Sequence record: ON568341.1
Strand: one strand, 5' to 3'
DNA from: Escherichia phage UE-S1
DNA: 64,000 nucleotides
The stretch's first letter is position 1; each line of letters opens with the position of its first letter. The position numbers and the translations under genes are program-made. The notes below the pieces were generated by a model. The model did no database searches. It saw nothing but the letters and a program-made list of their open reading frames with translations, and had not been told where the DNA came from. Of this stretch, positions 6,376 through 41,747 are shown piece by piece.

Positions 6376-6747
6376 ATGAGTTACCGTGAGATATTTTCCA
6401 TTATTTCAATTATTATGTTCAGTACTGGAACATTGGTGTGGGTATTATATTTTTTCTGTGTAGCACCAGTGTATAATATGTTATGTAATATTAAATCAAG
6501 TGCTGGATATATTACTTTTATGGTCTTTATGGGATATTATTGTCTAAGCATTTTAGGTGTTGTTTTGGTTGTTATATTAGATGTTGGACCGAATAGGGAT
6601 GGTCTGAAAATGTATGAGTTATTAACTATGTTTGGGTGTATGATACCAACAGCACTAATGTTTGTAGCTATTGGTGGTGGATGCATAAAGTTATACAATT
6701 ATTTAAAATCTATTCATCATTCCATTCACAATAAGCGTATGTCATAA
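6376..6747 (+). CDS. small polytopic membrane protein, family member 8
   Basis: GGAAA SD-like; hydrophobic. Confidence 0.5.
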   Translation: MSYREIFSIISIIMFSTGTLVWVLYFFCVAPVYNMLCNIKSSAGYITFMVFMGYYCLSILGVVLVVILDVGPNRDGLKMYELLTMFGCMIPTALMFVAIGGGCIKLYNYLKSIHHSIHNKRMS

Positions 6748-6788
6748 TAAAAATCCAGTACTGAATAGTACTGGACTAATAAGGAGTT

Positions 6789-7439
6789 ATGATGAAATCA
6801 AAATTAGGTTTGTTTTATGGAAACTACTTCATTAAACAGCGTAAATTCATAAAAAAATACTTCTCTACAGAGAAATCTAGTCCTCTAATTTTTAAAAGAC
6901 CAAAATATAATTTTTACTTAGCTGGTGCTAAACAGTCTAAGAAATTCATTACATTTTTAAATAAAAACAAAATTAAAGCTTCTTATGTTGAAACCAGAAA
7001 GAACTCATCAATAATTCCTGGTGATTTTATTGAATACGGATGTTTCAATATTAAGCACAATGATAACACATACTTTATGGATATTGATTGTAATACATCA
7101 AATCTTTTTAACATTGTAATAAATCCATCAAAACAATATAATGTTTATGGTGATTCAATTATCAAATTAATAAGAAACAAAGATTGGTTTGATTTTGAAA
7201 TAAATGTTTTAGATGAAAACTTTGATGAAGTTCCAGTTAATCCTGAAATATGTGATATATTAAACAGTTTAAAAGGTAGTAGCTACAATATACCATCTGA
7301 TTTAATGTTCCAGTACTCATTAATCCATAAAGATATTGAACAGTACATTATGTGTGCTAAAATCTTGAATTATCTGTATGATGAATTTAAAATGAGTTCT
7401 AAAATAACAGCATATACTCTTTATAATATTTCTATATAA
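6789..7439 (+). CDS. hypothetical protein (216 aa, Lys/Asn-rich)
   Basis: AAGGAG SD; long ORF ending at bidirectional terminator. Confidence 0.5.
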   Translation: MMKSKLGLFYGNYFIKQRKFIKKYFSTEKSSPLIFKRPKYNFYLAGAKQSKKFITFLNKNKIKASYVETRKNSSIIPGDFIEYGCFNIKHNDNTYFMDIDCNTSNLFNIVINPSKQYNVYGDSIIKLIRNKDWFDFEINVLDENFDEVPVNPEICDILNSLKGSSYNIPSDLMFQYSLIHKDIEQYIMCAKILNYLYDEFKMSSKITAYTLYNISI

Positions 7440-7450
7440 TTTAAAATATT

Positions 7451-7476
7451 AAAGCCAGCACAAGAGCACTGGCTTT
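7451..7476. terminator. bidirectional terminator hairpin between convergent genes
   Basis: AAAGCCAG-10 nt loop-CTGGCTTT flanked by A/T runs. Confidence 0.5.
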
Positions 7477-7480
7477 AATA

Positions 7481-8626
7481 TTATTTTTTCCAAGGAAGTA
7501 ACGAAGTTGGAATCTTGATAGGTATATTTGATGCAGCAACATCAGGAAAATTTGCATCTCCACAAACATACAAATTATCGATTTCGTCAATCAATAATGT
7601 ATAGTTGTAACTTCTACAAAAACCGCTTAAGCCTCTTCCCTCTAATGCAGATAAATTCATTTCAGTGAATTGAGTTATATATGTTTCATTTGAACCAACA
7701 CCACATTGACCATTAGCATTTATACCACAAGTAAGCAATTTATTATTGTTTTGAATTACACATGATGGTCCAGCAAGGTTCGTACCTAGTTCACCTACAA
7801 CATTAACTTCACCTTTTAATGATAAATTTTGGATCACTGTACTCATAGGGACACGCGATGTATTTCCAACACCTGCTTGTCCTGAGCCATTAGTGGATGC
7901 AACTTTAACAGTACCGTCATTAAGAAAAATATAAGATGTTTCGATGGTATTAACTGCTTGTGTAGCTGTTGTTATTGTCGTATCCTGCTTGAATTTAAGT
8001 ACATTTGTTGTTGTTGAACCAGATATAAATGTAGCACCTGCGTACCAATAGGTTCCATCTTGAAGTACTAAACCAGTACTTCTAATTGAACACCCTGCAC
8101 TGCGAACATTTTCTATATGACTATATGTAAAGGTTGATACGATTGAAGATTCACCATTACCGAACACCCCACCAGTACCTGCACCACAGAAAAACCATTT
8201 ACCGTTTTTCAAAAATACACGCATACAAGCAGAAATAACCACACTATCAATATCACTTGCAGCTACACCAAAATCGGTAAAGAAATGAGTTATATCAATC
8301 CAATTACCACCAGTATTTGATGGGAGATGGGGAATTACAACTCTAGTCCCTGTGTACCAGATTGTATCATCATCTTTAATAACAAGAGTACCTTGAACAC
8401 CACCCCAATACCTTGTTACATTTGTATTAACAAGCCTCCACTCAGTAGATGATTCAGTGGAGCCATTACCACCTTGACCATAAGATGATGAGCCGTGCCA
8501 GTATAAATTTCCATTTTTATCTAAATAAAATTTTGCATCAGCCGAACATTGCAATCTGTATTTGAATACGGTTTTTGGTGCTGGTGCAATATTTGCATAT
8601 TTTAGCATTCTACCAAAAGGTAACAT
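7481..8626 (-). CDS. RCC1-like beta-propeller protein with MLPFGRM tag (paralog 9)
   Basis: N-term MLPFGRMLKYANI; repeats such as CGINANGQCGVGSNET; AAGGAG SD. Confidence 0.7.
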   Translation of the reverse strand: MLPFGRMLKYANIAPAPKTVFKYRLQCSADAKFYLDKNGNLYWHGSSSYGQGGNGSTESSTEWRLVNTNVTRYWGGVQGTLVIKDDDTIWYTGTRVVIPHLPSNTGGNWIDITHFFTDFGVAASDIDSVVISACMRVFLKNGKWFFCGAGTGGVFGNGESSIVSTFTYSHIENVRSAGCSIRSTGLVLQDGTYWYAGATFISGSTTTNVLKFKQDTTITTATQAVNTIETSYIFLNDGTVKVASTNGSGQAGVGNTSRVPMSTVIQNLSLKGEVNVVGELGTNLAGPSCVIQNNNKLLTCGINANGQCGVGSNETYITQFTEMNLSALEGRGLSGFCRSYNYTLLIDEIDNLYVCGDANFPDVAASNIPIKIPTSLLPWKK

Positions 8627-8704
8627 AATTTTTCTCCTTCATTCATTATACTGTATTTAATCCAATTAAGAAAAGCTAGTATCAAGTACTGGCATTTAAA
8701 AGAA
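8627..8704 (-). promoter_or_regulatory. intergenic cassette: terminator hairpin + TAAATA..TATAAT promoter + SD
   Basis: minus strand reads GCCAGTACTTGATACTAGC hairpin ... TTAAATACAGTATAATGAATGAAGGAG-ATG. Confidence 0.5.
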
Positions 8705-9880
8705 TCAAATTGTCGGAAGTGGGAATTCTTTCATCACCGATGAACTGTTTGCTGCAATATTATCAGGAGATTTACCAGCGTAGTATAATTTATTATTAAT
8801 AAACATATATAGCGTTGCATCGTTCCCTGCTACAAGAGAATTACTTTTCTTAAAAATAACCCCTGGGGGTAAAATAGCTTCAACAAATGAACCTGATTCT
8901 CGTGTTGAATTGTTTGCCAATTGACCATTATTATTATAACCAGTACTATAAATTTTACCTGAACTATAATACACAAGACCACGTGTACTAATGTTTTCTA
9001 TACGAATGAATTCACTATCGTCCGGTACTGTAGTTGATAGAACTGGGTATAACTTATAAGCTGATGTTACATTATTATTACCCAATTGACCATAACCTTG
9101 AAAGCCTAGTGCATACATAGGACATGATTCTGGTGTACCTTTTGTTATAATACCAATATAATTCGAACTACAAAAAATATCCACTGCTTCTACAACATTT
9201 GTACCCTTATATTGAACCCAAGGAAATACATATGATTGTTGTTTGCCATTACCCAAAACACCGGAAGTTGTTGTACCTGTACGCCACATTGTATCATCAA
9301 GTTTAATAATCCAGTTAGCAGTTGTTATAGTTGAACAGAATTTTTTAACATTATCAACCAAGTATGTAAATTTATTATAATATGATGCAGTGTTTATTCC
9401 AAATTTAGCACCAGTATTGTCACCTAACAAATATAAACTATTATCTGTACCTAAAATCAAAACATAATCATGACCCACGTATATCTTTTTGATTTTTGAA
9501 ATACCAAATTGTGTAAAATAGCTGGTACATTCAGTGAATATTGTTACATGATTTGATGTATTATTACCTAGCCATTTATCTAAACCACTATAAAAGAACC
9601 TATCATCATTTGTGCGTATTAGACAAAAAGAATTATTTGTACTGCACCAGAAATCTTTGACATTACTATATATTTTTGTCCATTCAGTTACTTGATTAGT
9701 ATGACCTAAACCAAAAATTCCACCATTTTGTAGTCCCATAGCCCATATTGAACCATTTTTATCAAGAAGCATTGTGCATGTAAATGAATACCCACACGCT
9801 GGAGTAACTAATTTAACAAAATTGGGAATATATGGTAAAACTTTATTCCCATAATTCACCATTCTTCCAAAAGGTAACAT
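8705..9880 (-). CDS. RCC1-like beta-propeller protein with MLPFGRM tag (paralog 8)
   Basis: N-term MLPFGRMVNYGNK; STGYNNNGQLANN, LGFQGYGQLGNNN repeats. Confidence 0.7.
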   Translation of the reverse strand: MLPFGRMVNYGNKVLPYIPNFVKLVTPACGYSFTCTMLLDKNGSIWAMGLQNGGIFGLGHTNQVTEWTKIYSNVKDFWCSTNNSFCLIRTNDDRFFYSGLDKWLGNNTSNHVTIFTECTSYFTQFGISKIKKIYVGHDYVLILGTDNSLYLLGDNTGAKFGINTASYYNKFTYLVDNVKKFCSTITTANWIIKLDDTMWRTGTTTSGVLGNGKQQSYVFPWVQYKGTNVVEAVDIFCSSNYIGIITKGTPESCPMYALGFQGYGQLGNNNVTSAYKLYPVLSTTVPDDSEFIRIENISTRGLVYYSSGKIYSTGYNNNGQLANNSTRESGSFVEAILPPGVIFKKSNSLVAGNDATLYMFINNKLYYAGKSPDNIAANSSSVMKEFPLPTI

Positions 9881-9953
9881 ATTCTCTCCTTATTCATTAT
9901 AATATATATTTAATACAAATAATAATGCCAGTACTCAAATACTGGCATTATTA
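9881..9953 (-). promoter_or_regulatory. intergenic cassette: terminator hairpin + promoter + SD
   Basis: GCCAGTATTTGAGTACTGGC hairpin; GTATTAAATATATATTATAATGAATAAGGAG. Confidence 0.5.
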
Positions 9954-11144
9954 TTACAATTGTCTAGGTGTATCCAGAACATATCTATTTGTGCTAGGAC
10001 CGCCATCATCATAAGTTCCGGTTGAATATATATTTTTCATATCAGCAGTTAGAAATGTACGATACGAACCTCTATATATTTTTATTTTATCATACATATT
10101 ATATGTAATTTGTGCTGGCATTGGACATATAGTAAATCTTCCAATAGTCCCCACTGAACCTACCCCCAATGAGCCAGCATAACTACTCGCATTTAAACCA
10201 GTTGCATATACACCAGAACTCGTAACTAGTATACTAGATTGTGATGGGTATCCAGTATGAATTGAATACAAAGTTCCAGGTGGTAATGTCGTACTATTTC
10301 TCCCTAATACAGCAAGTGCCGAACTGGATGTGGTATTATTACCCCATGCACCATTACTTGCTAAACCACCAACTAGGAACTGACGTACACCCGTACTTGG
10401 ATTTTCCACCAAAGCACTGACTGAACCCATTGAGCATCCAGTGTATTGTAACGTTTTTGTGTATGTTGTACTTGGCTGATATAAAGTATATTCATTATAT
10501 AAAGTCCATGTAGTACTGGAACTTATACCGGATGTACCACCACCAATATATAAATTATTTTGTTTATCAAACAACATTACACAGTTATTTGTTGACATTA
10601 TTTGTGCAATATCAACATTAGGTGTTACTGCTTTTACAAATGAACCATCTGTTATTTGTTGAGTTTTTCCAGTACCATCAGCGAATTGTCTAGCCCCACT
10701 CCAACCAGTACTCCATATTGTATTATTATCCATTAAGAAAGTAAACCACGTAGTACCTGCATACATCTGTTTAATTGAAGTACTTGAACTTTGTTTGTAC
10801 AAATTTTCAATATATTGGTTATAACTTAAAAATGATGTAGTACTGGTTGGTAAACCAATATGACTACCAAATCCACAATAGAAATAATTTAAGTCATTAT
10901 CTTGAACTAACAAAGTTCCTTGTGTGATCCAGCAATCATTAACGTTTTCTCTAATTAATGTCCATGTTCTTAATGCAGTGTTGTTTCCTCTCCCAAACTG
11001 CCCAAAACTATTATTACCTCGTGCATATAGTTGACCATCAGTATAAAGTACAACAACATCAGTATCGGTTGTTAGTATTTTCTTAATTTGAAGTGGGATA
11101 GGTACAATATTCCCGTACTTAACCATTCTTGCAAAAGGTAACAT
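9954..11144 (-). CDS. RCC1-like beta-propeller protein with MLPFGRM tag (paralog 7)
   Basis: N-term MLPFARMVKYGNI; ARGNNSFGQFGRGNNT repeat. Confidence 0.7.
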   Translation of the reverse strand: MLPFARMVKYGNIVPIPLQIKKILTTDTDVVVLYTDGQLYARGNNSFGQFGRGNNTALRTWTLIRENVNDCWITQGTLLVQDNDLNYFYCGFGSHIGLPTSTTSFLSYNQYIENLYKQSSSTSIKQMYAGTTWFTFLMDNNTIWSTGWSGARQFADGTGKTQQITDGSFVKAVTPNVDIAQIMSTNNCVMLFDKQNNLYIGGGTSGISSSTTWTLYNEYTLYQPSTTYTKTLQYTGCSMGSVSALVENPSTGVRQFLVGGLASNGAWGNNTTSSSALAVLGRNSTTLPPGTLYSIHTGYPSQSSILVTSSGVYATGLNASSYAGSLGVGSVGTIGRFTICPMPAQITYNMYDKIKIYRGSYRTFLTADMKNIYSTGTYDDGGPSTNRYVLDTPRQL

Positions 11145-11215
11145 ATTTTCCTCCTTTATTCATTATACTATATTTAATCAAAAAGAAAAGCCAGTATCAA
11201 GTACTGGCCTATATT
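11145..11215 (-). promoter_or_regulatory. intergenic cassette: terminator hairpin + promoter + SD
   Basis: GCCAGTACTTGATACTGGC hairpin; GATTAAATATAGTATAATGAATAAAGGAGG. Confidence 0.5.
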
Positions 11216-11953
11216 TTAGACTGAATTGTTAGGATAATATCTCCCCCTTCCCCATATTATTCGCACAGCACCACCACCAGCAGCCGTATAAGAAGAATTA
11301 TCCCATATACTACCACCACCACCATACCTCTTACCAGCACCACCACTACCAGCACCACCATTATATGAACCACCGTAGCTACCACCAATACCATTAGCAC
11401 CTTGAACAATGATACCAGTACCACCACCCGTACCAATGAACGAGGTACTATAGAATGTACCACCCCCACCGCCGCCACCAGCACCATTTTCACCAGTGAT
11501 TGCATCTCCGTTACCACCTTTACCAGTGTAGCCACCAGCACCACCACCAATGACTGCACCACCACTTACACCAGTGTTGCCACCATTACCACCACCATCA
11601 TTAATAGCGTTAGCAGCTTTTCCACCTAGTCCACCAACCGTATATGCACCAGTGAAGCTAACACATAGTTTTTCAGTTCCACGATATAAACCGTTTTCAA
11701 CTGCTGTAGTAGTGTTGGGATGTGTAAGAGAAACACTTAAGTACTCACCACCAGAAACCGGAATATTATTACGCCACGATAAGCCGCCACCAGCACCACG
11801 TTGACCACCCGGCGAAATAACACATACTGATATTTCGGTAACGCCAGCAGGAACTGTAAATTGTGTTGTTCCTATTGTCGTGATTAATTGTTCACCATGT
11901 GGCTTATATTCAATTTTATTCCCGAACTTAACCATTCTTCCAAAAGGTAACAT
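11216..11953 (-). CDS. glycine-rich protein with MLPFGRM tag (paralog 6, non-propeller)
   Basis: N-term MLPFGRMVKFGNK; long GGxGG runs (..GGGNGGNTGVSGG..GAGGGGGGG..). Confidence 0.65.
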   Translation of the reverse strand: MLPFGRMVKFGNKIEYKPHGEQLITTIGTTQFTVPAGVTEISVCVISPGGQRGAGGGLSWRNNIPVSGGEYLSVSLTHPNTTTAVENGLYRGTEKLCVSFTGAYTVGGLGGKAANAINDGGGNGGNTGVSGGAVIGGGAGGYTGKGGNGDAITGENGAGGGGGGGTFYSTSFIGTGGGTGIIVQGANGIGGSYGGSYNGGAGSGGAGKRYGGGGSIWDNSSYTAAGGGAVRIIWGRGRYYPNNSV

Positions 11954-12024
11954 AATTCCCTCCTTTATTTGTTATACTATATTTAATACAAAAAGAAAAG
12001 CCAGTACTCAGTACTGGCATAATG
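11954..12024 (-). promoter_or_regulatory. intergenic cassette: terminator hairpin + promoter + SD
   Basis: GCCAGTACTGAGTACTGGC hairpin; GTATTAAATATAGTATAACAAATAAAGGAGGG. Confidence 0.5.
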
Positions 12025-13167
12025 TCAATAAGTATCCCAAGGTAATGGTGTCTTCCTAAATCCATACCTGGTTGTGCTCGCACCATCACCAGCAATGTAT
12101 CTACCTATACCACATTGGTATAACTCTGTACTACTACATATAGCACCACCTATAGTACCACTACTCCACTGAATTATATTAGAATATGTTATTGGTAAAT
12201 CACTACATTTAGTATATACAGCAACGGTAGAAGCACCACTAATACCACCAAACATACTTCGCTTAGCACCAGTGTAATATATACCATCTGGACTCATAAA
12301 TGCAGAGGTGTAAGTTGTACTGCAATCCACTGGACTTCTTATTGTATTAAGATCGCCTGGATATGTTCTGACACCAAAGGTGTATACATTACCATCAGTT
12401 GTAATACCATTACCTAACTGCCCACTGTTTTGTCCACCACATGTAAGCAACGATGCAGAACCAGAAACAATTGCAGTAGCATTATACGAAGTGCCCATTG
12501 CAATAGAAGCACCAGACAATAGTTTTGGAGTAACAATAGCTGTTGTATTACCCTGGCCTAATTCACCATTTGTGTTTCGTCCCCATGCGTATATGGAAGT
12601 AGTATCCAACCTACATAGTACTGAACCATAACTAAACGTATATCGCATGTCAATTACCGCAGAAGGCAAATTAACCTTAGTTGCAACACTAATAACACCA
12701 CCAGTAACACCACTGTTTGCGTTCATGTTACGACCATATGCATATAAAGAACCATCTGAAGTTTTAATATGCATCATACCATCTGTACAATATAATGCAT
12801 CTATACTCTCCACCGCAACCGGACCCATACTGGTAGTTATATCGGTCCACCCAAGAGTAGTAGTACTAGAAATTAAGTTATTTCCTGCGTATAGTATTCT
12901 ATTATTATTAGTAACTACAACTGTATATCTGGCAGTAACACCAATTAATCGAACATCAGTATATATCTTAGACCACGCACCTAATGAATTGGTGTTTGCA
13001 TCCAAAAAGCCCAACTGCCCATCTGTATTGTATCCAATGCCCCATACATCACCTGCACTGTCCAATAACACTTCATGTGAAAATCCAATCTTAAAATCTT
13101 TTATTGTAGGAACTACCGGATCTGGTGCAATATTCCCGTACTTAACCATTCTAGTAAAAGGTAACAT
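12025..13167 (-). CDS. RCC1-like beta-propeller protein with MLPFGRM tag (paralog 5)
   Basis: N-term MLPFTRMVKYGNI; WGIGYNTDGQLGF, WGRNTNGELGQGN, CGGQNSGQLGNG repeats. Confidence 0.7.
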   Translation of the reverse strand: MLPFTRMVKYGNIAPDPVVPTIKDFKIGFSHEVLLDSAGDVWGIGYNTDGQLGFLDANTNSLGAWSKIYTDVRLIGVTARYTVVVTNNNRILYAGNNLISSTTTLGWTDITTSMGPVAVESIDALYCTDGMMHIKTSDGSLYAYGRNMNANSGVTGGVISVATKVNLPSAVIDMRYTFSYGSVLCRLDTTSIYAWGRNTNGELGQGNTTAIVTPKLLSGASIAMGTSYNATAIVSGSASLLTCGGQNSGQLGNGITTDGNVYTFGVRTYPGDLNTIRSPVDCSTTYTSAFMSPDGIYYTGAKRSMFGGISGASTVAVYTKCSDLPITYSNIIQWSSGTIGGAICSSTELYQCGIGRYIAGDGASTTRYGFRKTPLPWDTY

Positions 13168-13240
13168 AATTCCCTCCCTTATTCATTATAATATATTTAA
13201 TACAAAAAAGAAAAGCCAGTACTTGAGTACTGGCATTATG
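13168..13240 (-). promoter_or_regulatory. intergenic cassette: terminator hairpin + promoter + SD
   Basis: GCCAGTACTTGAGTACTGGC(13215-13234); GTATTAAATATATTATAATGAATAAGGGAGG. Confidence 0.5.
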
Positions 13241-14350
13241 TTATTTTGGTAAATCAATTTTAGTAAAGACTGCAACATCCTCGCTTGCCCCAGGAATGGC
13301 GTAATACGATCCAGTACTATATACATCTCCGTCTTTGGTTAATATTGATGTTAAACCATCACTAAAAAGAACATCCCTAATCTCACTAACTTCAACGGGT
13401 AATTGTAAATTAGTAGCACTATATATTGCACCAGTTTGAGAATTGTTTAATCCCAAACCACGGTTCGCCCCAACACCCTTCTGATATGTACTAGTAATTA
13501 TCATTTGTGTAGCAGTATTTAAGGCAGGTGAATTCGTCATAAACAACGGAGAACTATTAGGCAAAGTACTTGCAGGAACTGCACGAAATGAAGTTGTATC
13601 TGAACTAAGAAAGTTTGGCGTTTGACCACATACGAAATATGATGTACCATTATAGTAATTAAATGCATTACCACCAATGACTGCATCGATTACACCAGAG
13701 CTACGTAATCCCCACGTGTTAATTTGTGTTCGGTTCCCCGTGCCATGCTGACCCCTGTCATTCCACCCAGAACTATATAACTTATTATCTAATGTAATAT
13801 ACATACTGTCATTTGCATTCGTCATTACTTTACGCACATTAGTAGCACATTGAGTTAATGTGTAAATTGATGATGAACCAATACCTAAAGCACCACGATA
13901 TCCATTAGCTCCTGCACCATAGAGTACTGAACTAGTGCTAAGTACAAATATTAAACCATACGAACATACAATATTAGCAATTTCACTCACTGGTATAGCA
14001 CTGGTAAACCAATTAGTTCTTTCAACTAATACTGTGCTGTAAGAAGTAGTTGTAGACGATGTGAACCAATATGTTTCCCCTGATGTCCATATAGTATTAT
14101 CATTTTTAATAATAACAAGTGCACGATCACCTACGAAAAAATTAGAAACATCTGCACTTACTAATATCCATGAAGATACCGTGTTTTTATTACCATTTCC
14201 AGATTCACCACCTTGATTTCTACCTATGTAATATAAATCATGTGAATCAGTTAATAAGAATTGACCCTGTGTAGATGCACCAACTTTAATTATATTTTTA
14301 GGACCAGGTACAATATTCCCATAATCAAACATTCTTACAAAAGGTAACAT
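13241..14350 (-). CDS. RCC1-like beta-propeller protein with MLPFGRM tag (paralog 4)
   Basis: Start set at conserved MLPFVRMFDYGNI (track ORF extends 5 codons upstream); SSGWNDRGQHGTGN repeat. Confidence 0.65.
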   Translation of the reverse strand: MLPFVRMFDYGNIVPGPKNIIKVGASTQGQFLLTDSHDLYYIGRNQGGESGNGNKNTVSSWILVSADVSNFFVGDRALVIIKNDNTIWTSGETYWFTSSTTTSYSTVLVERTNWFTSAIPVSEIANIVCSYGLIFVLSTSSVLYGAGANGYRGALGIGSSSIYTLTQCATNVRKVMTNANDSMYITLDNKLYSSGWNDRGQHGTGNRTQINTWGLRSSGVIDAVIGGNAFNYYNGTSYFVCGQTPNFLSSDTTSFRAVPASTLPNSSPLFMTNSPALNTATQMIITSTYQKGVGANRGLGLNNSQTGAIYSATNLQLPVEVSEIRDVLFSDGLTSILTKDGDVYSTGSYYAIPGASEDVAVFTKIDLPK

Positions 14351-14425
14351 AACTAAAATCTCCATATAATAATTATAATGTATTTACAAAAAAATACCAG
14401 CACATATTTCAGTACTGGTATAATG
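14351..14425 (-). promoter_or_regulatory. intergenic cassette: terminator hairpin + promoter + SD
   Basis: CCAGTACTGAAATATGTGCTGG hairpin; TGTAAATACATTATAAT...GGAG. Confidence 0.45.
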
Positions 14426-15607
14426 TTATGGTAAAATAATAGCTTGTAACGAACTCATACCCAATGTTGGAACACTCGCCTGTGGTGCTGGAGAATTCAA
14501 TTTTGGTGATGAAACCGCATATGACATTCCTGAACCCAAATCTGGATCAAAAACTACAGCACAATAATTCCCACTATATATAAGTCCATTCTTGTATCCT
14601 TGTGCACTTTGAATGCATTTCGTGAACGTACCAATATCTGTAGTGGCATTTATTAAGTTCCTCCCACGATAACCGCAGGTGTATATGAAATTATCATCGC
14701 CTATGTACATACTAGAATCCCCAGAAGAACTACATAGATACGACATATAAGCACGCATGTTTTTAGGAGCAACTGACAATGTACCTGCATAGAATTTATT
14801 ATTCGAACCCGTAATATTACCATCACCCAATGCACCAAAACTTCCCCAGCCAGTACCGTAATATCTCTTATCACTCAAAAATATAATACAGTTGTTATTA
14901 CACATCTTGATTTGATATATCAATGAAGGATCAATCCCAGGGAATGATTCAGTGAATGTTAGAACAGCCGGATCAGTACTAGCATTACATTGATGATATG
15001 TATTAGTACCAGCGGACAAGATTGTTCCATTAGCTAACAGAATTCTCGCAGTACCAGTACCAGCAGTACAAGCAACTGCACTTCCTGCACTTCCGGTGTA
15101 TATTTGTCTGAAAGTAAAGAAACCAACAGTTTTACTTCCCTGCCCACTCCAACCAGTATTATCAACTCCACACGCCCATACTGAACCATCTTGCATGATC
15201 ATCATTACACCAAAGCGTTCTATTGAAATATAAACAATCTTCGTTGTATCAACTGCACTAAATCTAGAAGTTATATCAGTCCATACCTTAACACTTACCG
15301 CCGTCGCACTGGAAGTAGGATCTTCACCAGCTATCATTATCCTCCCATTGTTAGTAAGATACATTGTCTGACTATAACCAGTACTACAAAACTTAACACT
15401 ATCAGTCTCTGGAACTTTTAACCACTCGTTGTAACGTGTTACGTTAGTGTTATTACCTAACTGATAATAGTTATTCATCCCAGATACATATAACACACCA
15501 TCCTTTATTAAACTATAAGTCGCACTATAGTCACTACAGGTATAACGTGTACCCACAGGTGGCTCAACGACGTTCCCGTACTTAACCATTCTCCCAAAAG
15601 GTAACAT
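14426..15607 (-). CDS. RCC1-like beta-propeller protein with MLPFGRM tag (paralog 3)
   Basis: N-term MLPFGRMVKYGNV; TGWGSFGALGDGN, MNNYYQLGNN repeats. Confidence 0.7.
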   Translation of the reverse strand: MLPFGRMVKYGNVVEPPVGTRYTCSDYSATYSLIKDGVLYVSGMNNYYQLGNNTNVTRYNEWLKVPETDSVKFCSTGYSQTMYLTNNGRIMIAGEDPTSSATAVSVKVWTDITSRFSAVDTTKIVYISIERFGVMMIMQDGSVWACGVDNTGWSGQGSKTVGFFTFRQIYTGSAGSAVACTAGTGTARILLANGTILSAGTNTYHQCNASTDPAVLTFTESFPGIDPSLIYQIKMCNNNCIIFLSDKRYYGTGWGSFGALGDGNITGSNNKFYAGTLSVAPKNMRAYMSYLCSSSGDSSMYIGDDNFIYTCGYRGRNLINATTDIGTFTKCIQSAQGYKNGLIYSGNYCAVVFDPDLGSGMSYAVSSPKLNSPAPQASVPTLGMSSLQAIILP

Positions 15608-15680
15608 AATAAAATCTCCGTAATTAAATTATATAGTATTTACAAAAAATACCAGTACATATTTCAGTACTGACCTATTA
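15608..15680 (-). promoter_or_regulatory. intergenic cassette: terminator hairpin + promoter + SD
   Basis: CAGTACTGAAATATGTACTGG hairpin; TGTAAATACTATATAAT...GGAG. Confidence 0.45.
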
Positions 15681-16802
15681 TTAAAAGGGCAACGGTAACT
15701 CAGTAAAAGTACTTACGTCCGGTAAACCATACATTAAATTAGCATCACCACAGTAATACCACTTCGTAGAATCATGTACCACCGATAAACGCTGTGCACA
15801 TAACACTTCCTGTATGTCATTAAACACCATCGGGACTAACTCATATGTATCTGCAAATGAAGATTCACTACCACTCGCATGAAAAGTATTTGTCCCAGCA
15901 TAAAATAACTGATTAGTGTTCTTACCCACAGCAAATGTTATCAAAACCCCATCATTCTCCCATAAAGAAGAAAACTTATCAACACTACCAGAAAGCTCTG
16001 TGTAAGTACTCGTAATGGCACTCGCCGCCGCCGCATTACCCATCTGTTTATTCAAGTTCTGTCCAGCAATAAAATATCTCGTTCGTGCACTAGAATCAGT
16101 ATATAATAACCCAGTGTTCGTAGTCATCATTCCAATGTCCTTAATCGTCATATCAGTCTGTGAATAACTTAGATACGAAGTTAAATTAACATTATTACCC
16201 AACGAACCGTTAGAACTCATGCCACAACGATGTAATATACCACTTGTATCAACGTAGATAGTACTAACTAAACTCGTATACAACTCTTGTACATTATTCG
16301 CAATAAACACAGCAGTCGCCTTATTACTAACCCCACCAAATGATAGGTTATTATCAAATCCCTTAGCGTATAATTGATTATTAGTAGTCAATAATCCAAT
16401 CGTGTAATAAGACATTTTCATATCCCTTACTGTACTCAAATCTACTGCCCCAAATTGATACGTAACATCTGTCCATTTGAAAATCTGTGCACTACCAACA
16501 CCACCCGTTTCAAACCATTTGTCACCACAGTACAATATGCGATTATCCTTAGTAAAGATAACTGTTAACAATCCACTACCACACGCAAACTTTACATCAC
16601 TTCTAACCTTCGTCCAATCAAGTACATAGGTAGTGGTGTTATTACCTATACCTAACTTGCCATAACGGTTATAACCACGCACCCATAAATCACCACTCTT
16701 AGTAATTAATAGTAATGCGTCTCCTGTACTTATTATTCGAAATCCCGAACTAGGATCAGGGGCAATATTCCCGTACTTAACCATTCTCCCAAAAGGTAAC
16801 AT
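15681..16802 (-). CDS. RCC1-like beta-propeller protein with MLPFGRM tag (paralog 2)
   Basis: N-term MLPFGRMVKYGNI; YNRYGKLGIGNNT, MSSNGSLGNN repeats. Confidence 0.7.
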   Translation of the reverse strand: MLPFGRMVKYGNIAPDPSSGFRIISTGDALLLITKSGDLWVRGYNRYGKLGIGNNTTTYVLDWTKVRSDVKFACGSGLLTVIFTKDNRILYCGDKWFETGGVGSAQIFKWTDVTYQFGAVDLSTVRDMKMSYYTIGLLTTNNQLYAKGFDNNLSFGGVSNKATAVFIANNVQELYTSLVSTIYVDTSGILHRCGMSSNGSLGNNVNLTSYLSYSQTDMTIKDIGMMTTNTGLLYTDSSARTRYFIAGQNLNKQMGNAAAASAITSTYTELSGSVDKFSSLWENDGVLITFAVGKNTNQLFYAGTNTFHASGSESSFADTYELVPMVFNDIQEVLCAQRLSVVHDSTKWYYCGDANLMYGLPDVSTFTELPLPF

Positions 16803-16875
16803 ATTTTCCTCCTTTATTCATTATACTATATTTAATACAAAAAGAAATGCCAGTATCAAGTACTGGCATATTAAT
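16803..16875 (-). promoter_or_regulatory. intergenic cassette: terminator hairpin + promoter + SD
   Basis: GCCAGTACTTGATACTGGC hairpin; GTATTAAATATAGTATAATGAATAAAGGAGG. Confidence 0.5.
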
Positions 16876-18024
16876 TCATTGTATAAATGACATATCTACT
16901 TCTGTATAATTAAGAACGTTCTGTCCAGAAATACCACCCATTACTACTATTGCAAGGCCACAATAATATAATTTTCCAGTATCCGTAAGTATAAGTGATC
17001 CAGATGGACTGCGTACCAAATCACACGAACTATTAAAAGAAGTATAAGAAGGAGTATAGGAGTACTGATTATTATTATTACCAACACCTAATTGCCCAAA
17101 CCCATTCGATCCAGAAGCATATAGAACTTCATCTGCTTTGACAATATGTGATGCCATGTTACCAACACAAGTATATAGAGTATAAACTCCTGAACTCAAT
17201 AATGTCGGAGTTTTATATTGTATATCTGTAGATGTAGAAGTACCACCTGTACCAAATTCGTTCCCATATTGTGCACCGAACTGTTTGCCACAAGCGTACA
17301 AATTATTATCCGATTTGATAAAAAATGTACTCTGATAACTTACATTAAAATCTATAACATCCGAAGAAATCATCGTCACCCCAGTAATAGAAGTTTGATT
17401 ACCCGTGCCCAACTGGTAGTAATAGTTAAAACCACAACCCCATAAAGTATTATCTTCTCGCAAATAAATGTTACCAACTGCCTTTTTAACCGAAGTTATA
17501 GTATCTACTCTTTTGAATGTGTTAAAAGAATTAATGTTTGTACCATCACCAAATGATGATATGTTCGATATATTGTTAACTCCACAACAATACAATGTAC
17601 CATCTTTTGTTATCAAATTCACCTTCATATCATAAAAACTACTCATGTATTTTATATCAGAAACATTAACACCACTTGATGTTATCCACGTAGTACAGTC
17701 CGTCCACAAAGTTTTTCTATCAGTTACACCAGTGAATGCCTTCGTGTTACCAGTGATAAAAACTTTTCCAGTACCTTTCTCTTCATACAATTGACAATCA
17801 CTACTGTTATCTTCCAATAGAACTCGTTTAACATTCTCCGCACAAAGAATAAATTTACTCGATGCTACACCTGTACCAGTACCCCAATTCGTCGCAGAAG
17901 ATGCATACAACTTATCAGTATAAGTATCATGAAGATACATAGAATCACTGGAATATATTTTAAAACGCCCTTCTTTCTCAGGTATAATATTCCCGTACTT
18001 AACCATTCTCCCAAAAGGTAACAT
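16876..18024 (-). CDS. RCC1-like beta-propeller protein with MLPFGRM tag (paralog 1)
   Basis: N-term MLPFGRMVKYGNI; GSNGFGQLGVGNNN, FNYYYQLGTGNQT repeats. Confidence 0.7.
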   Translation of the reverse strand: MLPFGRMVKYGNIIPEKEGRFKIYSSDSMYLHDTYTDKLYASSATNWGTGTGVASSKFILCAENVKRVLLEDNSSDCQLYEEKGTGKVFITGNTKAFTGVTDRKTLWTDCTTWITSSGVNVSDIKYMSSFYDMKVNLITKDGTLYCCGVNNISNISSFGDGTNINSFNTFKRVDTITSVKKAVGNIYLREDNTLWGCGFNYYYQLGTGNQTSITGVTMISSDVIDFNVSYQSTFFIKSDNNLYACGKQFGAQYGNEFGTGGTSTSTDIQYKTPTLLSSGVYTLYTCVGNMASHIVKADEVLYASGSNGFGQLGVGNNNNQYSYTPSYTSFNSSCDLVRSPSGSLILTDTGKLYYCGLAIVVMGGISGQNVLNYTEVDMSFIQ

Positions 18025-18060
18025 ATTCCCTCCTTATTCATTATATCATATTTACCCAAA
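18025..18060 (-). promoter_or_regulatory. promoter + SD of first array gene
   Basis: minus strand GGTAAATATGATATAATGAATAAGGAGGG-ATG. Confidence 0.45.
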
Positions 18061-18065
18061 AAACA

Positions 18066-18094
18066 CTTGACACCCTTTCAGTACTGTTGTACAA
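18066..18094 (+). promoter_or_regulatory. sigma70-like promoter (divergent from array)
   Basis: TTGACA(18066-18071), 17 nt spacer, TACAAT(18089-18094). Confidence 0.5.
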
Positions 18095-18120
18095 TAGAAG
18101 GAATATTAGGAGAACTACAT

Positions 18121-18348
18121 ATGACAAATACCCTTAAGTACTACCTCAATACTCTGCCCGACCTAGAGTACGGGAAGTTTCTCGCAGATAGTTCGTGGCT
18201 GATTGAGCTAAAAAAATATAATAGTCCCGGATGCACCCTTATGATGAACAATGCAATTGATACCCTTATAGTGAGTATTTTACATAGCAACATCTACGGG
18301 GATAACAATAAACAATTAACAAAAATCTTAGTACTGCTATCTCTATGA
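18121..18348 (+). CDS. small protein, MNNHKEYY...LLIYRY-type family (75 aa)
   Basis: ATG 18121 with AGGAG SD; C-term hydrophobic ..TKILVLLSL. Confidence 0.5.
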   Translation: MTNTLKYYLNTLPDLEYGKFLADSSWLIELKKYNSPGCTLMMNNAIDTLIVSILHSNIYGDNNKQLTKILVLLSL

Positions 18349-18557
18349 ACACTATGAGCACTGAACAGTTCTACATCAATGCACTACCAACTAAAAGTCT
18401 TCAAGAAAGCTTACTGTATACACAAAAGAATTTTAAAAACTTCAAACGTTGCCCTAAACTACTGAACTCGTACAGGAATAATATTATAAGAAATGTTTTA
18501 CAAGGAGAAGAAAGTATGCAATACTATCACATCCTTATACTTATATTGGAGTACTAA
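18345..18557 (+). CDS. small protein, tandem family
   Basis: ATGA overlap with previous gene; C-term ..YYHILILILEY. Confidence 0.5.
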   Translation: MNTMSTEQFYINALPTKSLQESLLYTQKNFKNFKRCPKLLNSYRNNIIRNVLQGEESMQYYHILILILEY

Positions 18558-18558
18558 T

Positions 18559-18768
18559 ATGAATACTGAACATAAAGAATTCTACACCAAATACCTCAGT
18601 AACGAAGAACAATTGTTTCTAAGAAGTGTATCACCGGTAAGTACCAATACTCAATTCGGTAGAGATTGCTTTAATAATTGTATACGTAGTACCCTAGAAG
18701 CAATCGAATATAATAACAAAAATATTATGTACTCAGGTTTAATAGGACTAATATTCTTCTATGAATAA
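18559..18768 (+). CDS. small protein, tandem family
   Basis: TAATATG junction; MNTEHKEFYTKYL..; C-term LIGLIFFYE. Confidence 0.5.
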   Translation: MNTEHKEFYTKYLSNEEQLFLRSVSPVSTNTQFGRDCFNNCIRSTLEAIEYNNKNIMYSGLIGLIFFYE

Positions 18769-18955
18769 TCATAAAGATTTCTATGGTAGTAAACTACACA
18801 AACATGAACAGCTATCATTCTCTTTAGCACCACCTATGAGAAAGGATAATCTATATTATAATTACGATTTCAGGATGGCGACACGTTATGCAATAGAACA
18901 TCAGTTCCCTGAAACTAAGTACCGCTCTATCCTGAACCTCATCTTTAAGTTCTAA
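18761..18955 (+). CDS. small protein, tandem family
   Basis: MNNHKDFY N-terminus; overlaps previous stop. Confidence 0.5.
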   Translation: MNNHKDFYGSKLHKHEQLSFSLAPPMRKDNLYYNYDFRMATRYAIEHQFPETKYRSILNLIFKF

Positions 18956-19002
18956 AAACAGCACCAGGGTCCGAGTACTTTAACATAGTAAGGCTAATTA
19001 CA

Positions 19003-19188
19003 ATGAATCATATACGCTACTATTACCAACAACTATCCGACAGGGACAAGTACAGCCACAATTCCCATGTATGGTACTACAAACGCGGCAGTATAAGAGA
19101 CAAACAACATTACTTCTGTATTTCTATTAAAGAAGCACTAACAACTAAGTACACGTACAGAGCAGTACTTAAACTAATCTCTATCTAA
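19003..19188 (+). CDS. small protein (61 aa)
   Basis: ORF in tightly packed array; MNHIRYYYQQL. Confidence 0.45.
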   Translation: MNHIRYYYQQLSDRDKYSHNSHVWYYKRGSIRDKQHYFCISIKEALTTKYTYRAVLKLISI

Positions 19189-19196
19189 GGAATACT

Positions 19197-19376
19197 ATGC
19201 AAGAATTCTATATAGAACATATAACCATAAAAGACCGTTTCATGTACCACACCTTCGTGAAATACTACAAACTGGGAACAAAAAGTACTAAAAATATTAA
19301 TCTCAATAGCTGCATTCATTCTGCACTAACAAAAGATAATCCCTTCAGGGAAATCCTCGCACTAGCATCTGTATAA
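19197..19376 (+). CDS. small protein (59 aa), tandem family
   Basis: AAGGAA SD; MQEFYIEHI..; not in ORF track (under 60 aa). Confidence 0.4.
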   Translation: MQEFYIEHITIKDRFMYHTFVKYYKLGTKSTKNINLNSCIHSALTKDNPFREILALASV

Positions 19377-19386
19377 AGGAAACCAA

Positions 19387-20046
19387 ATGAAACTTAATGC
19401 ACACAGCAAACAATACCTTAAGCACTTTAAGTACCTCAACAGTATTCAAGCAGAATCTTTTACACCAGCATATACGTATCACCCTAATGTACTAAAGAAA
19501 CGAAATAAAAAGAAAAAATCCAGAAATGTTCTCGTATCTAAGAACCTCAAATCGTACTTGAAGAAAAATAATATAGCTCTTGCTTTTATTAATATCTATA
19601 ATACTGATTTAAAAGTATTGAGTACTAATACCAGCACAAAAGCACTAAAGAATGCATCTATCTATATACACATGGATAATATCCCGTGCACTATAATTCT
19701 ATCTTCCGGGAATGTATACTTCTTCGGGAATTGTAATAGCACCCATGATATCAGTACTGCACAATTCCAAATCGGAGATATGTACTGCATGGGTTCAGAA
19801 AAAATACACGATAATATGCACTTCTTCCAAAAGCAACGTACTAACGAAACTGATACAGTACTGCAATTCCTCAAAGAACTAGAACACAAAGAATTATCCG
19901 AGGAAGAAGAATTCATGTACAGTACTGTAATCGATAATCCAGGACTCTATAAAAACGCGTACAAACTAACAAAACATGTACAGGAACTTATCAGTACTGA
20001 TAAGAAAATTCATCACCTCATTACGTATATTTCAAACTATGTATAA
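19387..20046 (+). CDS. hypothetical protein (219 aa)
   Basis: AAGGAAA SD; long ORF inside the small-protein array. Confidence 0.5.
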   Translation: MKLNAHSKQYLKHFKYLNSIQAESFTPAYTYHPNVLKKRNKKKKSRNVLVSKNLKSYLKKNNIALAFINIYNTDLKVLSTNTSTKALKNASIYIHMDNIPCTIILSSGNVYFFGNCNSTHDISTAQFQIGDMYCMGSEKIHDNMHFFQKQRTNETDTVLQFLKELEHKELSEEEEFMYSTVIDNPGLYKNAYKLTKHVQELISTDKKIHHLITYISNYV

Positions 20047-20221
20047 AGAATACTACATAGAGAAACTCCCAATGCATCTACAACACCATATACCAAACGT
20101 TGCATTGGGCATAACCGAGCACGCAAAGATAATGTTCCAACAATGTACTAAGTACACGCTCATATACGATGATAATCCATATATGCTGTACTACGTAGTA
20201 ATGCTAACATTCAGGTACTAA
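20039..20221 (+). CDS. small protein, tandem family
   Basis: MYKEYYIEKLPMHLQ..; C-term YYVVMLTFRY; overlaps previous stop. Confidence 0.5.
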   Translation: MYKEYYIEKLPMHLQHHIPNVALGITEHAKIMFQQCTKYTLIYDDNPYMLYYVVMLTFRY

Positions 20222-20222
20222 T

Positions 20223-20402
20223 ATGAATACTTATAAAGAATTCTACCTCTCGTACCTTAATTCCGATATAGTAACATCCAATACATTCAGTACTAAAATT
20301 ATCTATAATGAAGTAATGAAAGAATGTATTAAAGGTGCTATTAACCCTAAAGATACGTATGACTTGTACTATGCAGTACTAACCCTTGTTTTCACGAAAT
20401 AA
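20223..20402 (+). CDS. small protein (59 aa), tandem family
   Basis: TAATATG junction; MNTYKEFYLSYL..YAVLTLVFTK. Confidence 0.4.
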   Translation: MNTYKEFYLSYLNSDIVTSNTFSTKIIYNEVMKECIKGAINPKDTYDLYYAVLTLVFTK

Positions 20403-20410
20403 CACATAAT

Positions 20411-20602
20411 ATGAATAACCACAAAGAATACTACATAGAGAAACTCCCAATGTATCTCCAACACCTTCTACCAACAGAACCATTGCGTATAGAAAAAAAC
20501 TACGAAAAAGACTACTTCATTCAGTGCACTAAATCCTCGATATATATTGAAGACTATAATCGAGTACTGTATCACATCCTTTTACTAATATATAAGTACT
20601 AA
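20411..20602 (+). CDS. small protein, tandem family
   Basis: MNNHKEYYIEKLPMYLQ..YHILLLIYKY. Confidence 0.55.
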   Translation: MNNHKEYYIEKLPMYLQHLLPTEPLRIEKNYEKDYFIQCTKSSIYIEDYNRVLYHILLLIYKY

Positions 20603-20603
20603 T

Positions 20604-20792
20604 ATGAATAACCACAAAGAATACTACACACAATTTCTCCCCAGCATTTTGGAACAATACGCCAGATATAAAGTCCCCCTCGATAACGATTTGGCAGTAC
20701 TGGGATTCAATAACTGCATAGAACGAAGTATAGAAAATAGTAATAGCTATGAACAATTATATAACACTATCCTACTTATATTCAGGTACTAA
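20604..20792 (+). CDS. small protein, tandem family
   Basis: TAATATG junction; MNNHKEYYTQFL..YNTILLIFRY. Confidence 0.55.
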   Translation: MNNHKEYYTQFLPSILEQYARYKVPLDNDLAVLGFNNCIERSIENSNSYEQLYNTILLIFRY

Positions 20793-20793
20793 T

Positions 20794-20982
20794 ATGTATA
20801 AAGAATACTACGCAAAATATTTCCCAATGTATCTCAGAACTAATCTATTAGATAAACCTCGCGATATCAATGCACAAAACGATAAAGTGTACTTTATTAT
20901 GTGCACTAAAGCATGTATACTAGATCATGACAGCTACCATCGAGTACTGTATCATACACTGTACCTAGCTTTCGTATACTAA
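20794..20982 (+). CDS. small protein, tandem family
   Basis: TAATATG junction; MYKEYYAKYFPMYL..YHTLYLAFVY. Confidence 0.5.
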   Translation: MYKEYYAKYFPMYLRTNLLDKPRDINAQNDKVYFIMCTKACILDHDSYHRVLYHTLYLAFVY

Positions 20983-21017
20983 AATGTACTCCGGTTTAAT
21001 AGGACTAATATTCTTCT

Positions 21018-21197
21018 ATGAATAATCATAAAGATTTCTACATAAGCCATCTGGATATAAACTCCCAAATGCTTATACTACTAAACACAATAGATTTCAA
21101 GGATAAGAAAAAGATCCAACAATTCATTGACCATACGGACCGTGCTGTGAACCAAAATTATATGTACTACATTCTCGCCCTAATATACAGGTACTAA
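21018..21197 (+). CDS. small protein (59 aa), tandem family
   Basis: MNNHKDFYISHL..YYILALIYRY. Confidence 0.45.
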   Translation: MNNHKDFYISHLDINSQMLILLNTIDFKDKKKIQQFIDHTDRAVNQNYMYYILALIYRY

Positions 21198-21198
21198 T

Positions 21199-21384
21199 AT
21201 GCATAGAGAATACTATATACAATTTGTTAAAGAAAACTACAAACACGCCGTCCCCGTAAACCCTTTAAATTCTAATGACCCAAGTACTATATTCTTGTTC
21301 CATGACGCAATACGTACAGTACTCAATACTAAAGATGAACAAGTGCAGTACGTATTCTTACTTTTACTTATATACAGACACTAA
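21199..21384 (+). CDS. small protein, tandem family
   Basis: TAATATG junction; MHREYYIQF..FLLLLIYRH. Confidence 0.5.
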   Translation: MHREYYIQFVKENYKHAVPVNPLNSNDPSTIFLFHDAIRTVLNTKDEQVQYVFLLLLIYRH

Positions 21385-21397
21385 AGCACTAACTAAT

Positions 21398-21598
21398 ATG
21401 AATAAAGAATATAAAGACTTCTATATAAGTAAACTAAAAGAAAATGAACAAGCATGGATTCAACCACTAATAATACTTCCATTTAATAGATATTCATTGA
21501 ACCGATGTACCGAGATTGCTATAGACCCTTGTCCTATTAAAGAGAATGTACAATACAATCAGTACTACTATATCTTAATGCTTATATATAGGAAGTAA
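21398..21598 (+). CDS. small protein, tandem family
   Basis: ATG 21398 (TAATATG-type context); MNKEYKDFYISKL..YYILMLIYRK. Confidence 0.5.
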   Translation: MNKEYKDFYISKLKENEQAWIQPLIILPFNRYSLNRCTEIAIDPCPIKENVQYNQYYYILMLIYRK

Positions 21599-41680: not shown

Positions 41681-41747
41681 AAAAAAGTCAAGGCGTTTTT
41701 TAAATTATGCGTTAAAAAAATGCATAGGTAATCCCTTGACTTTTTTG
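41681..41747. promoter_or_regulatory. large inverted repeat between early block and LGTNYQE array
   Basis: AAAAAAGTCAAGG (41681-41693) vs CCTTGACTTTTTT (41734-41747); AATGCGTA-like motif three times nearby. Confidence 0.4.

Follow-up and report, generated by a model that had tools for sequence, protein, structure and literature searches.

The locus analysed here lies in the genome of Escherichia phage UE-S1 (ON568341.1), between a block of early genes and an array of paralogous genes, and it carries a perfect inverted repeat whose function is the question at hand. The original prediction, made on a stretch of 64,000 nucleotides (the whole of which is called the window below), was that the repeat lies at a boundary between the two gene blocks, where an operator, an antitermination site or a processing site would control the array. 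There is a real boundary at this place, although it is mainly one at the level of the DNA, namely the right end of a direct terminal repeat (DTR) that lies 58 bases beyond the inverted repeat.

The inverted repeat and the genome end

Judged by sequence, the source of the window is an Asteriusvirus, a jumbo coliphage of the 121Q/G17/phAPEC6 kind. A 1-kb stretch around the inverted repeat matches 36 phage records at 87–97% identity (ph0011, phAPEC6, G17, 121Q, PBECO4 and others), all of them Asteriusvirus jumbo coliphages or Salmonella relatives. The main features of the region are as follows.

21923–41804, plus strand: DTR, 19,882 bp in the window, with left and right ends matched to record termini
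40973–41374, plus strand: penultimate DTR gene, 133 aa, phrog_10173, no assigned function
41443–41652, plus strand: last DTR gene, 69 aa, phrog_17833, no assigned function, stop codon TAA at 41650–41652
41681–41693, plus strand: left arm of the inverted repeat, AAAAAAGTCAAGG, comprising an A-tract and the 5′ half of the lower stem
41734–41746, plus strand: right arm, CCTTGACTTTTTT, comprising the 3′ half of the lower stem and a U-tract, and including the cross-genus box TTGACTTTT
41792–41811, no strand assigned: right DTR terminus, GGGCGGGTAACCT|TAGCGAC, cut between 41804 and 41805

Record ends were compared for all records carrying both copies of the DTR. The last base of the right DTR end (...GGGCGGGTAACCT, ending ...AACCT) is identical in seven records, vB_Ec-M-J, E9.1, CRJP21, fEgEco12, G17, WPEC3 and WPEC5, and in these it falls 152 nt past the stop codon of the 69-aa gene, at 41804|41805. 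The left DTR end begins with AGTAGGCAGAGG in all four records checked and corresponds to window position 21923, which is the first base of vB_Ec-M-J, fEgEco12 and E9.1, and also of G17 in reverse complement. Since these record ends coincide, the DTR spans 21923–41804 in the window, and both of its ends are fixed at single-base resolution. The vB_Ec-M-J annotation “Direct Terminal Repeats” (1..21525) likewise ends at window position 41804. In related phages, termini have been set by PhageTerm together with restriction digests (fEgEco12, with a DTR of 20,993 bp; PMC13070987), from read coverage (G17; PMC6563267) and by PhageTerm (Sharanji, with a DTR of 20,668 bp; PMC11895373). Position 41804|41805 is a physical genome end, where terminase presumably cuts, and the boundary at this locus is exactly the right DTR end that is annotated or implied in the records of Asteriusvirus and Rak2-like jumbo phages with published DTRs (G17, fEgEco12, Sharanji, vB_Ec-M-J, fENko-Kae01, Muenster and CBB). 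The papers on fEgEco12, G17, Sharanji, phAPEC6 and CBB give a DTR length or report no DTR; the features discussed below (hairpin, conserved boxes, CT|TAGC cut motif and terminal non-coding tail) are described in none of them. The genes of the DTR are small and all point rightward, many with consensus sigma-70-type promoters; searches of Pfam and PHROGs assigned no function to any of the proteins flanking the inverted repeat.

The inverted repeat sits 58–123 nt inside the right DTR end, in the same intergenic gap as the terminus. On the coding strand, it begins 28 nt past the TAA of the last DTR gene. As predicted, it is genuine: the arms are 100% complementary over 13 bp, with 40 nt between them, and no further copy of either 13-mer occurs anywhere in the window. 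Perfect inverted repeats of at least 13 bp with a loop of at most 60 nt number five in the window, where first-order Markov simulations of the window lead one to expect 0.13 per 64 kb. The repeat is beyond chance, though the genome is rich in inverted repeats. An AATGCGTA motif, said to occur three times around the repeat, does have exact copies at 41651 and 41774, and the third, AATGCATA at 41719, carries one mismatch. The motif is not enriched, with 73 copies at up to one mismatch in the window against 64.6 ± 7.6 expected, and a cluster of three such copies within 131 bp is expected, by estimate, about 0.25 times per window, so the cluster is marginal. Given no enrichment, and a middle copy that the vB_Ec-M-J clade does not conserve, AATGCGTA was rejected as a repeated signal.

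Several other sequences in and around the DTR were observed. The two termini have in common only a 4–5-bp flanking motif, GCTA|...|TAGC; the left flank, ..CACTA|AGTAGG, and the right flank, ..AACCT|TAGCG, form a short inverted motif (21918–21943 and 41800–41809), the corresponding pair in fENko-Kae01 being CCGCTA|...|TAGCC, and both DTR ends, read outward, begin TAGY. A 6-bp hairpin, GGCAGA-ggaag-TCTGCC, begins 4 nt inside the left DTR end. Between the 133-aa and 69-aa genes, a GC-rich hairpin at 41399–41418 (GGCCGC-cttgta-GCGGCC) has no plus-strand U-tract and a terminator-like score on the minus strand only; it may be an mRNA stabiliser or a processing site. RB49/JSE-type T4-like phages encode homologues of the 133-aa protein (about 34% identity), as do ~145-kb coliphages such as A7_1 and phiWec188 (about 70% identity), so the protein is not confined to jumbo phages. 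A hexamer that recurs across the window also has a site just before the hairpin.

41664–41677, no strand assigned: AGTACT-centred motif, ATTTAGTACTGATT

This motif is kept in every Asteriusvirus aligned, and an AGTACT site stands at the equivalent place in Erwinia phage Hallingskeid, in Serratia phage BF and in the IMG/VR contig L024; in jumbo phages of Erwinia, Serratia and Klebsiella, the homologous tails have such sites too. The hexamer is 10–20 times over-represented, with 136 copies inside the DTR against 6.4 expected and a density of 12.5 per kb in the non-coding DNA of the DTR. It frequently takes the form CAGTACTG, placed between the hexamers of consensus promoters (TTGACA..TCAGTACTGTATAAT), or that of the 14-bp palindrome ATTCAGTACTGAAT; examples are at 22286–22313, 38500–38527, 23459–23472 and 23512–23525. 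AGTACT is suspected to be a binding or modification site.

A predicted hairpin in the sense transcript

RNA fold prediction gave the inverted repeat a larger context, in which the two arms close a second stem-loop.

41676–41749, plus strand: whole predicted sense-strand hairpin, consisting of lower stem, internal loop and upper stem
41705–41727, plus strand: upper stem-loop, UUAUGCGUU / AAUGCAUAG, G.U pairs included

The sense RNA of 41676–41752 is predicted to fold into a two-stem hairpin of −23.6 kcal/mol (z = −5.7), and none of 200 shuffles was as stable. The minus strand reaches −16.9 kcal/mol, against −23.6 on the plus strand, and this asymmetry, together with the G.U pairs, indicates a structure at the RNA level and on the sense strand. 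As single-stranded DNA the region folds at −14.1 kcal/mol (z = −4.2), which is also better than shuffles. The layout begins with an A-tract at 41681–86, continues with the stem GUCAAGG/CCUUGAC around the second stem-loop, and ends with UUUUUU at 41741–41746, which comes straight after CCUUGAC and has its A6 counterpart upstream. The hairpin size is 54–70 nt, with stacked stems of 13–16 bp and 9–12 bp and an internal loop between them. The TGCGTTAAAAAAATGCA palindrome that had been noticed inside the loop is no true DNA palindrome, as it needs G.T/G.U wobble; in the sense RNA it does form a 9-bp stem.

In several respects the hairpin resembles an intrinsic terminator, being a stable sense stem-loop with an immediate U-tract, located on the same strand past a stop codon. 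It departs from the compact GC-rich form (stem of 5–14 bp, loop of 3–8 nt) in having 40 nt between the arms and an AU-rich base. A simple terminator scan did not call the hairpin, and the ARNOLD-based annotation of G17 has no terminator at this site. With a d'Aubenton-Carafa-type score, computed from a provisional form of the formula that uses older energy parameters, the hairpin obtains −10.7 and would fail, although short DTR hairpins that are called by ARNOLD also score only about −5 with this provisional formula. Rfam matches were rejected as generic long-hairpin similarity; they comprise bglG-cis-reg (RF03530) at 30.1 bits, against a gathering score of 80, and a miRNA match of 18.6 bits, with no other matches in Rfam. 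The proposed antitermination site thus finds no backing, the sole Rfam similarity that could speak for one being that to bglG-cis-reg, at 30 bits against 80.

Conservation within and beyond Asteriusvirus

The inverted repeat is kept in most Asteriusviruses. The few changes in the arms are uncompensated: the vB_Ec-M-J clade has TTTTAT for TTTTTT in the right arm, and WPEC3 has A for G in the left. The upper stem of the vB_Ec-M-J clade has two broken pairs, again uncompensated, and is shortened to 5 bp with register-shifted flanking pairs; the vB_Ec-M-J variant of the whole hairpin is predicted to fold at −21.2 kcal/mol (z = −5.1). Because there is little variation within Asteriusvirus, and the arm changes are uncompensated, a comparison across genera was needed to look for covariation. 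The RNAalifold consensus across genera, which rests on six sequences only, pairs GCGUUUUUU at 41693–41701 with AAAAAAUGC at 41715–41723 in nine pairs, four of which show compensatory changes, and this T6/A6 inner stem is a competing alternative to the upper stem that the MFE fold of the single sequence predicts.

In JNE01 and Turkey5, the most divergent members, the gap is about 70% identical to that of the window and forms a homologous but diverged segment without the inverted repeat. Both keep the AGTACT site, AGGGATTGGACTATG, TGCGTGGGGG (TGCGTAGGGGG in the window), GGGTAACCT|TAGC and the array promoter. The JNE01 fold at this site shows no significant structure (z about 0 to −0.8), and in Turkey5 the equivalent place is taken by a small AUGCAU hairpin with U6 after it. 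Turkey5 (L015, 706–870) also carries a tandem duplication of about 80 bp that covers the gene end, the AGTACT site and the AUGCAU hairpin with its U6.

Beyond the genus, the 133-aa and 69-aa genes are syntenic together with a tail of 145–152 nt that leads to the terminus, and in jumbo phages of Klebsiella, Serratia and Erwinia the 133-aa gene is found about 19 kb into the record. In Klebsiella phage fENko-Kae01, where PhageTerm places the DTR at 1..19736, the two last DTR proteins are 37–44% identical to those of the window; the homologue of the 69-aa protein, ENKO_050 (37% identity), is likewise encoded by the last DTR gene. The Hallingskeid record begins exactly 152 nt beyond its 69-aa homologue, and the same synteny of the last DTR genes and the tail is seen in Serratia BF, in pEa_SNUABM_19 and in an IMG/VR contig. 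In Klebsiella phage Muenster, for which PhageTerm also gives a DTR end, the 133-aa gene is present and the 69-aa gene absent.

Right-anchored alignment of these tails at the terminus revealed a series of boxes in register. The one at the cut itself, CT|TAGC, is where PhageTerm places the terminus of both fENko-Kae01 and Muenster. The homologous position is the start of the Hallingskeid record, in which only the inner CT is included, and the motif is also found in BF, L024, L041, L046, L080 and L137. Besides L024, four IMG/VR homologues, fHe-Yen9-04 among them, share the terminal core. A degenerate scan of IMG/VR for the box pair returned mostly chance matches, the true homologues being only L041, L046/L114, L080 and L137. 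A second box stands further upstream.

41758–41769, no strand assigned: conserved box GATTGGACTATG, 36–47 nt before the terminus, with an identical 12-mer in fENko-Kae01

Within it, GGACT(A/G)T is in register at 36–43 nt from the end in every lineage but Hallingskeid, which has CTATG only. The third box, TTGACTTTT(C/T)T, coincides with the right arm of the inverted repeat and lies 68–70 nt before the terminus in the window, fENko-Kae01, Hallingskeid and Serratia BF. A AAACCAATACCTTA cassette replaces the TTGAC box in Muenster, JNE01 and Turkey5.

The presence of this box goes together with the hairpin. In all six lineages with a TTGAC/TTAAC-TTTTCT box (the window, vB_Ec-M-J, fENko-Kae01, Hallingskeid, Serratia BF and IMG/VR L024), the 3′ arm of a predicted hairpin stops at the box, UUUU(C/U)U comes next, and the stem sequences differ; in the vB_Ec-M-J clade the U-tract reads UUUUAU, and that of other genera is UUUUCU. 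The z-scores in these six range from −2.4 to −6.3, and in each of them the plus strand is 4–8 kcal/mol more stable than the minus strand, with 1–8 G.U pairs. Comparable hairpins with different stem sequences are thus present in four other genera, those of Hallingskeid for example being AAAUUUUAGA/UCUAAAAUUU and UAUCCC/GGGAUA. The three lineages without the box (JNE01, Turkey5 and Muenster) have no significant structure, and Muenster, which is without the hairpin, has instead a classical annotated terminator after its 133-aa gene. Between the window and fENko-Kae01, the terminal 75 nt are 64% identical and the adjacent coding DNA 63–66%.

The right terminus, ...CT|TAGC with in-register boxes upstream, is accordingly common to jumbo phages of several genera and sequence-specific. 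It provides a simple rule by which Rak2-like genomes deposited as permuted or collapsed assemblies can be oriented and trimmed, as well as a defined target for studying how a terminal repeat of about 20 kb is cut and duplicated. In practice, this context is worth more than the hairpin, which is itself probably routine gene punctuation.

Transcription termination and alternative roles

The position of the hairpin past a stop codon, its A-tract, stem and U-tract layout, its sense bias, its persistence across genera and its absence in Muenster, the one lineage without the last gene, all point to an RNA element at the 3′ end of a transcript. The compensatory changes in the RNAalifold inner stem, the small hairpin with U6 in Turkey5 and the classical terminator of Muenster also speak for this. 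Moreover, with a conserved promoter, a Shine–Dalgarno (SD) sequence and a start codon following, the promoter 98 nt downstream, a transcription-unit boundary is to be expected here. The reading tentatively preferred, which could well be right though at somewhat less than even confidence, is that the hairpin is an atypically long intrinsic terminator and/or a 3′-end-stabilising hairpin that closes early transcription of the DTR. The sense RNA of the last DTR gene would then contain an imperfect hairpin of about 70 nt, with the inverted repeat as its lower stem. This hairpin would stop early transcription by the host RNA polymerase without the aid of a factor, stabilise the 3′ end, or do both. 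Early transcripts from the right DTR copy would end before the genome end, and those from the left copy before the unique region, while the downstream array would be transcribed from its own sigma-70-type promoter, with its first gene read from GTG 41902. The termination or processing activity, the timing of expression and the RNA polymerase used are what we infer from these observations; a literature search found no Asteriusvirus transcriptome. The processing site of the original prediction finds support in part, in that a predicted sense-strand RNA hairpin with a U-tract fits a transcription stop or a processing site where the early block ends.

The T7 early terminator TE closes the early region that is transcribed by the host RNA polymerase. 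As with such intrinsic terminators, a stem-loop and then a U-tract follow the last gene of the early block and a new promoter comes next, and the A-tract mirrors the U-tract as it does in intrinsic terminators with an upstream A-tract. Compared with typical intrinsic terminators, however, the window hairpin is far longer, has two stems and an internal loop, is more AU-rich and goes uncalled by predictors. These same traits, including the structured 40-nt “loop”, count against a terminator, as do the uncompensated arm changes within Asteriusvirus and the lack of significant structure in JNE01. Furthermore, that TTGACTTTT is kept in sequence, and always equally far from the cut, exceeds what a terminator needs.

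It is because of this conservation at a fixed distance that a role in forming the DNA end is a serious, if somewhat unlikely, rival. The repeat, and especially its right arm TTGACTTTT, would act in cis as a signal by which the right DTR boundary is recognised and formed, through terminase or a protein that binds the end, or as a hairpin or cruciform that aids duplication of the repeat during concatemer processing; a hairpin or cruciform role has reportedly been proposed for the concatemer junctions of T7. Consistent with such a role, the repeat lies 58–123 nt inside a mapped terminus, its right arm is a box (AGGTAWTSSTTGACTTTTCT) that four genera share at 68–70 nt from the cut, their neighbouring proteins being no more than 37–44% identical, and further in-register boxes follow (GATTGGACTATG and ...AAGGSSRGTMAYSCT|TAGC). 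GTCAA/TTGAC complementarity recurs in fENko-Kae01, Hallingskeid and Muenster, with a left arm of variable position, and the single-stranded DNA fold beats shuffles (−14.1 kcal/mol, z = −4.2). Yet JNE01, Turkey5 and Muenster lack the repeat and the TTGAC box, having AAACCAATACCTTAG instead, and nevertheless keep the GGACT box and the CT|TAGC terminus. In addition, no copy of an arm (at up to two mismatches) occurs near the left terminus at 21923, identity to fENko-Kae01 over the terminal 75 nt is no greater than in the adjacent coding DNA (64% against 63–66%), and the G.U-dependent stems and plus-strand bias favour RNA.

A broader and quite unlikely version would add the CT|TAGC core and the GGACTATG box to the TTGACTTTT box and the complementary arm before it, to make a cis-acting end signal of about 125 bp, present in Rak2-like jumbo phages of at least five genera, that directs a sequence-specific terminase cut at the right DTR boundary; the hairpin would then be a DNA-level or dual RNA/DNA element. 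Since the DTR carries the earliest genes read by the host polymerase, such a signal might perhaps also pause DNA entry, in a two-step delivery like that of phage T5.

The injection-stop region of T5, described by Davison, is the untranslated end of a terminal repeat and contains inverted repeats with a constant 52-bp spacer and paired DnaA boxes within them (bioRxiv 10.1101/866236). By analogy, the untranslated DTR tail of the window might pause DNA entry after the early (DTR) genes, a very improbable reading. The resemblance lies in an untranslated segment with an inverted repeat at the right end of a long terminal repeat of early genes (here small, with consensus sigma-70 promoters, and all directed inward from the left end), and in arm centres 53 bp apart, or about five helical turns. 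Unlike T5, the window has no DnaA boxes (TTWTNCACA, both strands, 41301–42000), and its tail of 152 nt is roughly ten-fold shorter than the ~1.2 kb of nested repeats in T5, with a single inverted repeat in place of nested arrays. The repeat is also missing in three related lineages, and two-step DNA transfer in these phages was not found in a literature search.

At the RNA level, termination is to be weighed against cleavage. The early mRNAs of T7 carry intergenic processing hairpins for RNase III, and the window hairpin is similar to these in being intergenic, about 60–70 nt long, built of two stems with an internal loop and located in early transcripts. Host RNase III might accordingly cut the interrupted stem of about 25 bp and so fix a stable 3′ end, with the sense-strand stability of the two stacked stems after an early gene in its favour. 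Such a processing or stabilising site is decidedly unlikely, as cleavage has no specific support and a U-tract directly follows the stem, a feature that RNase III sites do not require. In contrast to the T7 hairpins, the one in the window has this 3′ U-tract and occurs just once, where the block ends, and other intergenic hairpins in the DTR are short (20–28 nt).

Finally, the arms could conceivably bind a regulatory protein as an operator, or be a neutral by-product of duplicated −35/hairpin modules, either of which is distinctly improbable. What suggests this is that TTGACTTTTT occurs four times in the window, three of them within 172 bp here (41682, 41736 and 41844), and that hairpin-promoter modules elsewhere in the DTR carry TTGACT inside the stem. 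The third of these TTGACTTTTT copies, however, is simply the −35 of the array promoter, the arms themselves are unique in the window, and other genera conserve the hairpin potential through different sequences. The operator that had been proposed also fails on layout, with half-sites 40 bp apart that overlap no promoter and do not recur at other promoters. The arms were rejected as promoters in their own right, the TTGACT having no acceptable −10 at 16–18 nt from either arm (ATTGGA on the plus strand, TAAATC on the minus strand), and likewise in fENko-Kae01, Hallingskeid and BF.

The promoter and first gene of the array

Under the preferred reading of a 3′-end hairpin that closes the early unit, the array beyond the terminus would start afresh from the following elements.

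41844–41871, plus strand: sigma-70-type promoter of the paralogous array, TTGACT, 16-nt spacer, TAAAAT, 10/12 matches
41902–42099, plus strand: first array gene, 65 aa, phrog_4148, GTG start, SD GGGAG at 41892–41896

The promoter has its −35 TTGACT at 41844–41849 and its −10 TAAAAT at 41866–41871, 40 nt outside the DTR and 98 nt past the repeat, and its hexamers and spacing are kept in JNE01 and Turkey5. These two phages retain promoter and array without the repeat, which, together with the location of a conserved promoter of the array's own outside the DTR, speaks against control of the array by the repeat. It had further been noted that the first array gene begins only 2 nt after a TATAAA box. 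An ATG at 41872 does follow TATAAA at 41864–41869, but the conserved start lies 10 codons downstream, at 41902, and the “TATAAA box” overlaps the −10 of the array promoter. At 41902 the window has GTG, where phAPEC6, G17, 121Q and vB_Ec-M-J have ATG (with a 198-nt CDS annotated), and a frame opened at the upstream ATG would close again two codons later in JNE01 and Turkey5. From this comparison of sequences, ATG 41872 is probably a mis-called start. The start of the first gene is thereby corrected, and the array stands out as a transcription unit of its own, its promoter lying 40 nt beyond the DTR.

More than 20 tandem paralogous genes (65–96 aa, phrog_4148) run from 41902, 98 nt outside the DTR, to 46027 and beyond. 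They share the LGTNYQE motif, many of them have overlapping stop and start codons, and their proteins have no Pfam match. Gene number and content of the array differ among Asteriusviruses. In Salmonella SD-phage records (L019, SD-15_S21, about 860–900), a deletion of about 70 bp removes the array promoter and joins ...CGACTTCGATAAAAGGTCCTATG to the first array gene.

A 32-nt segment at 41715–41746, which includes the 3′ arm of the hairpin, is 72% complementary to the region of the ribosome-binding site of the first array gene (41881–41912). This pairing could be relevant only where transcription from the left DTR copy reads through, and may be a matter of chance in AT-rich DNA. A composite hairpin-promoter module, AAAGGGATTGACTCCGGTCAGTCCCTTTGCTATTATAT, occurs in three identical copies (35055–35092, 38062–38099 and 40321–40358), with variants at 1791, 3075 and 31698. 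It forms a hairpin with a 12-bp stem that is listed as a terminator in the G17 annotation, and its 5′ arm holds the −35 TTGACT of the next promoter.
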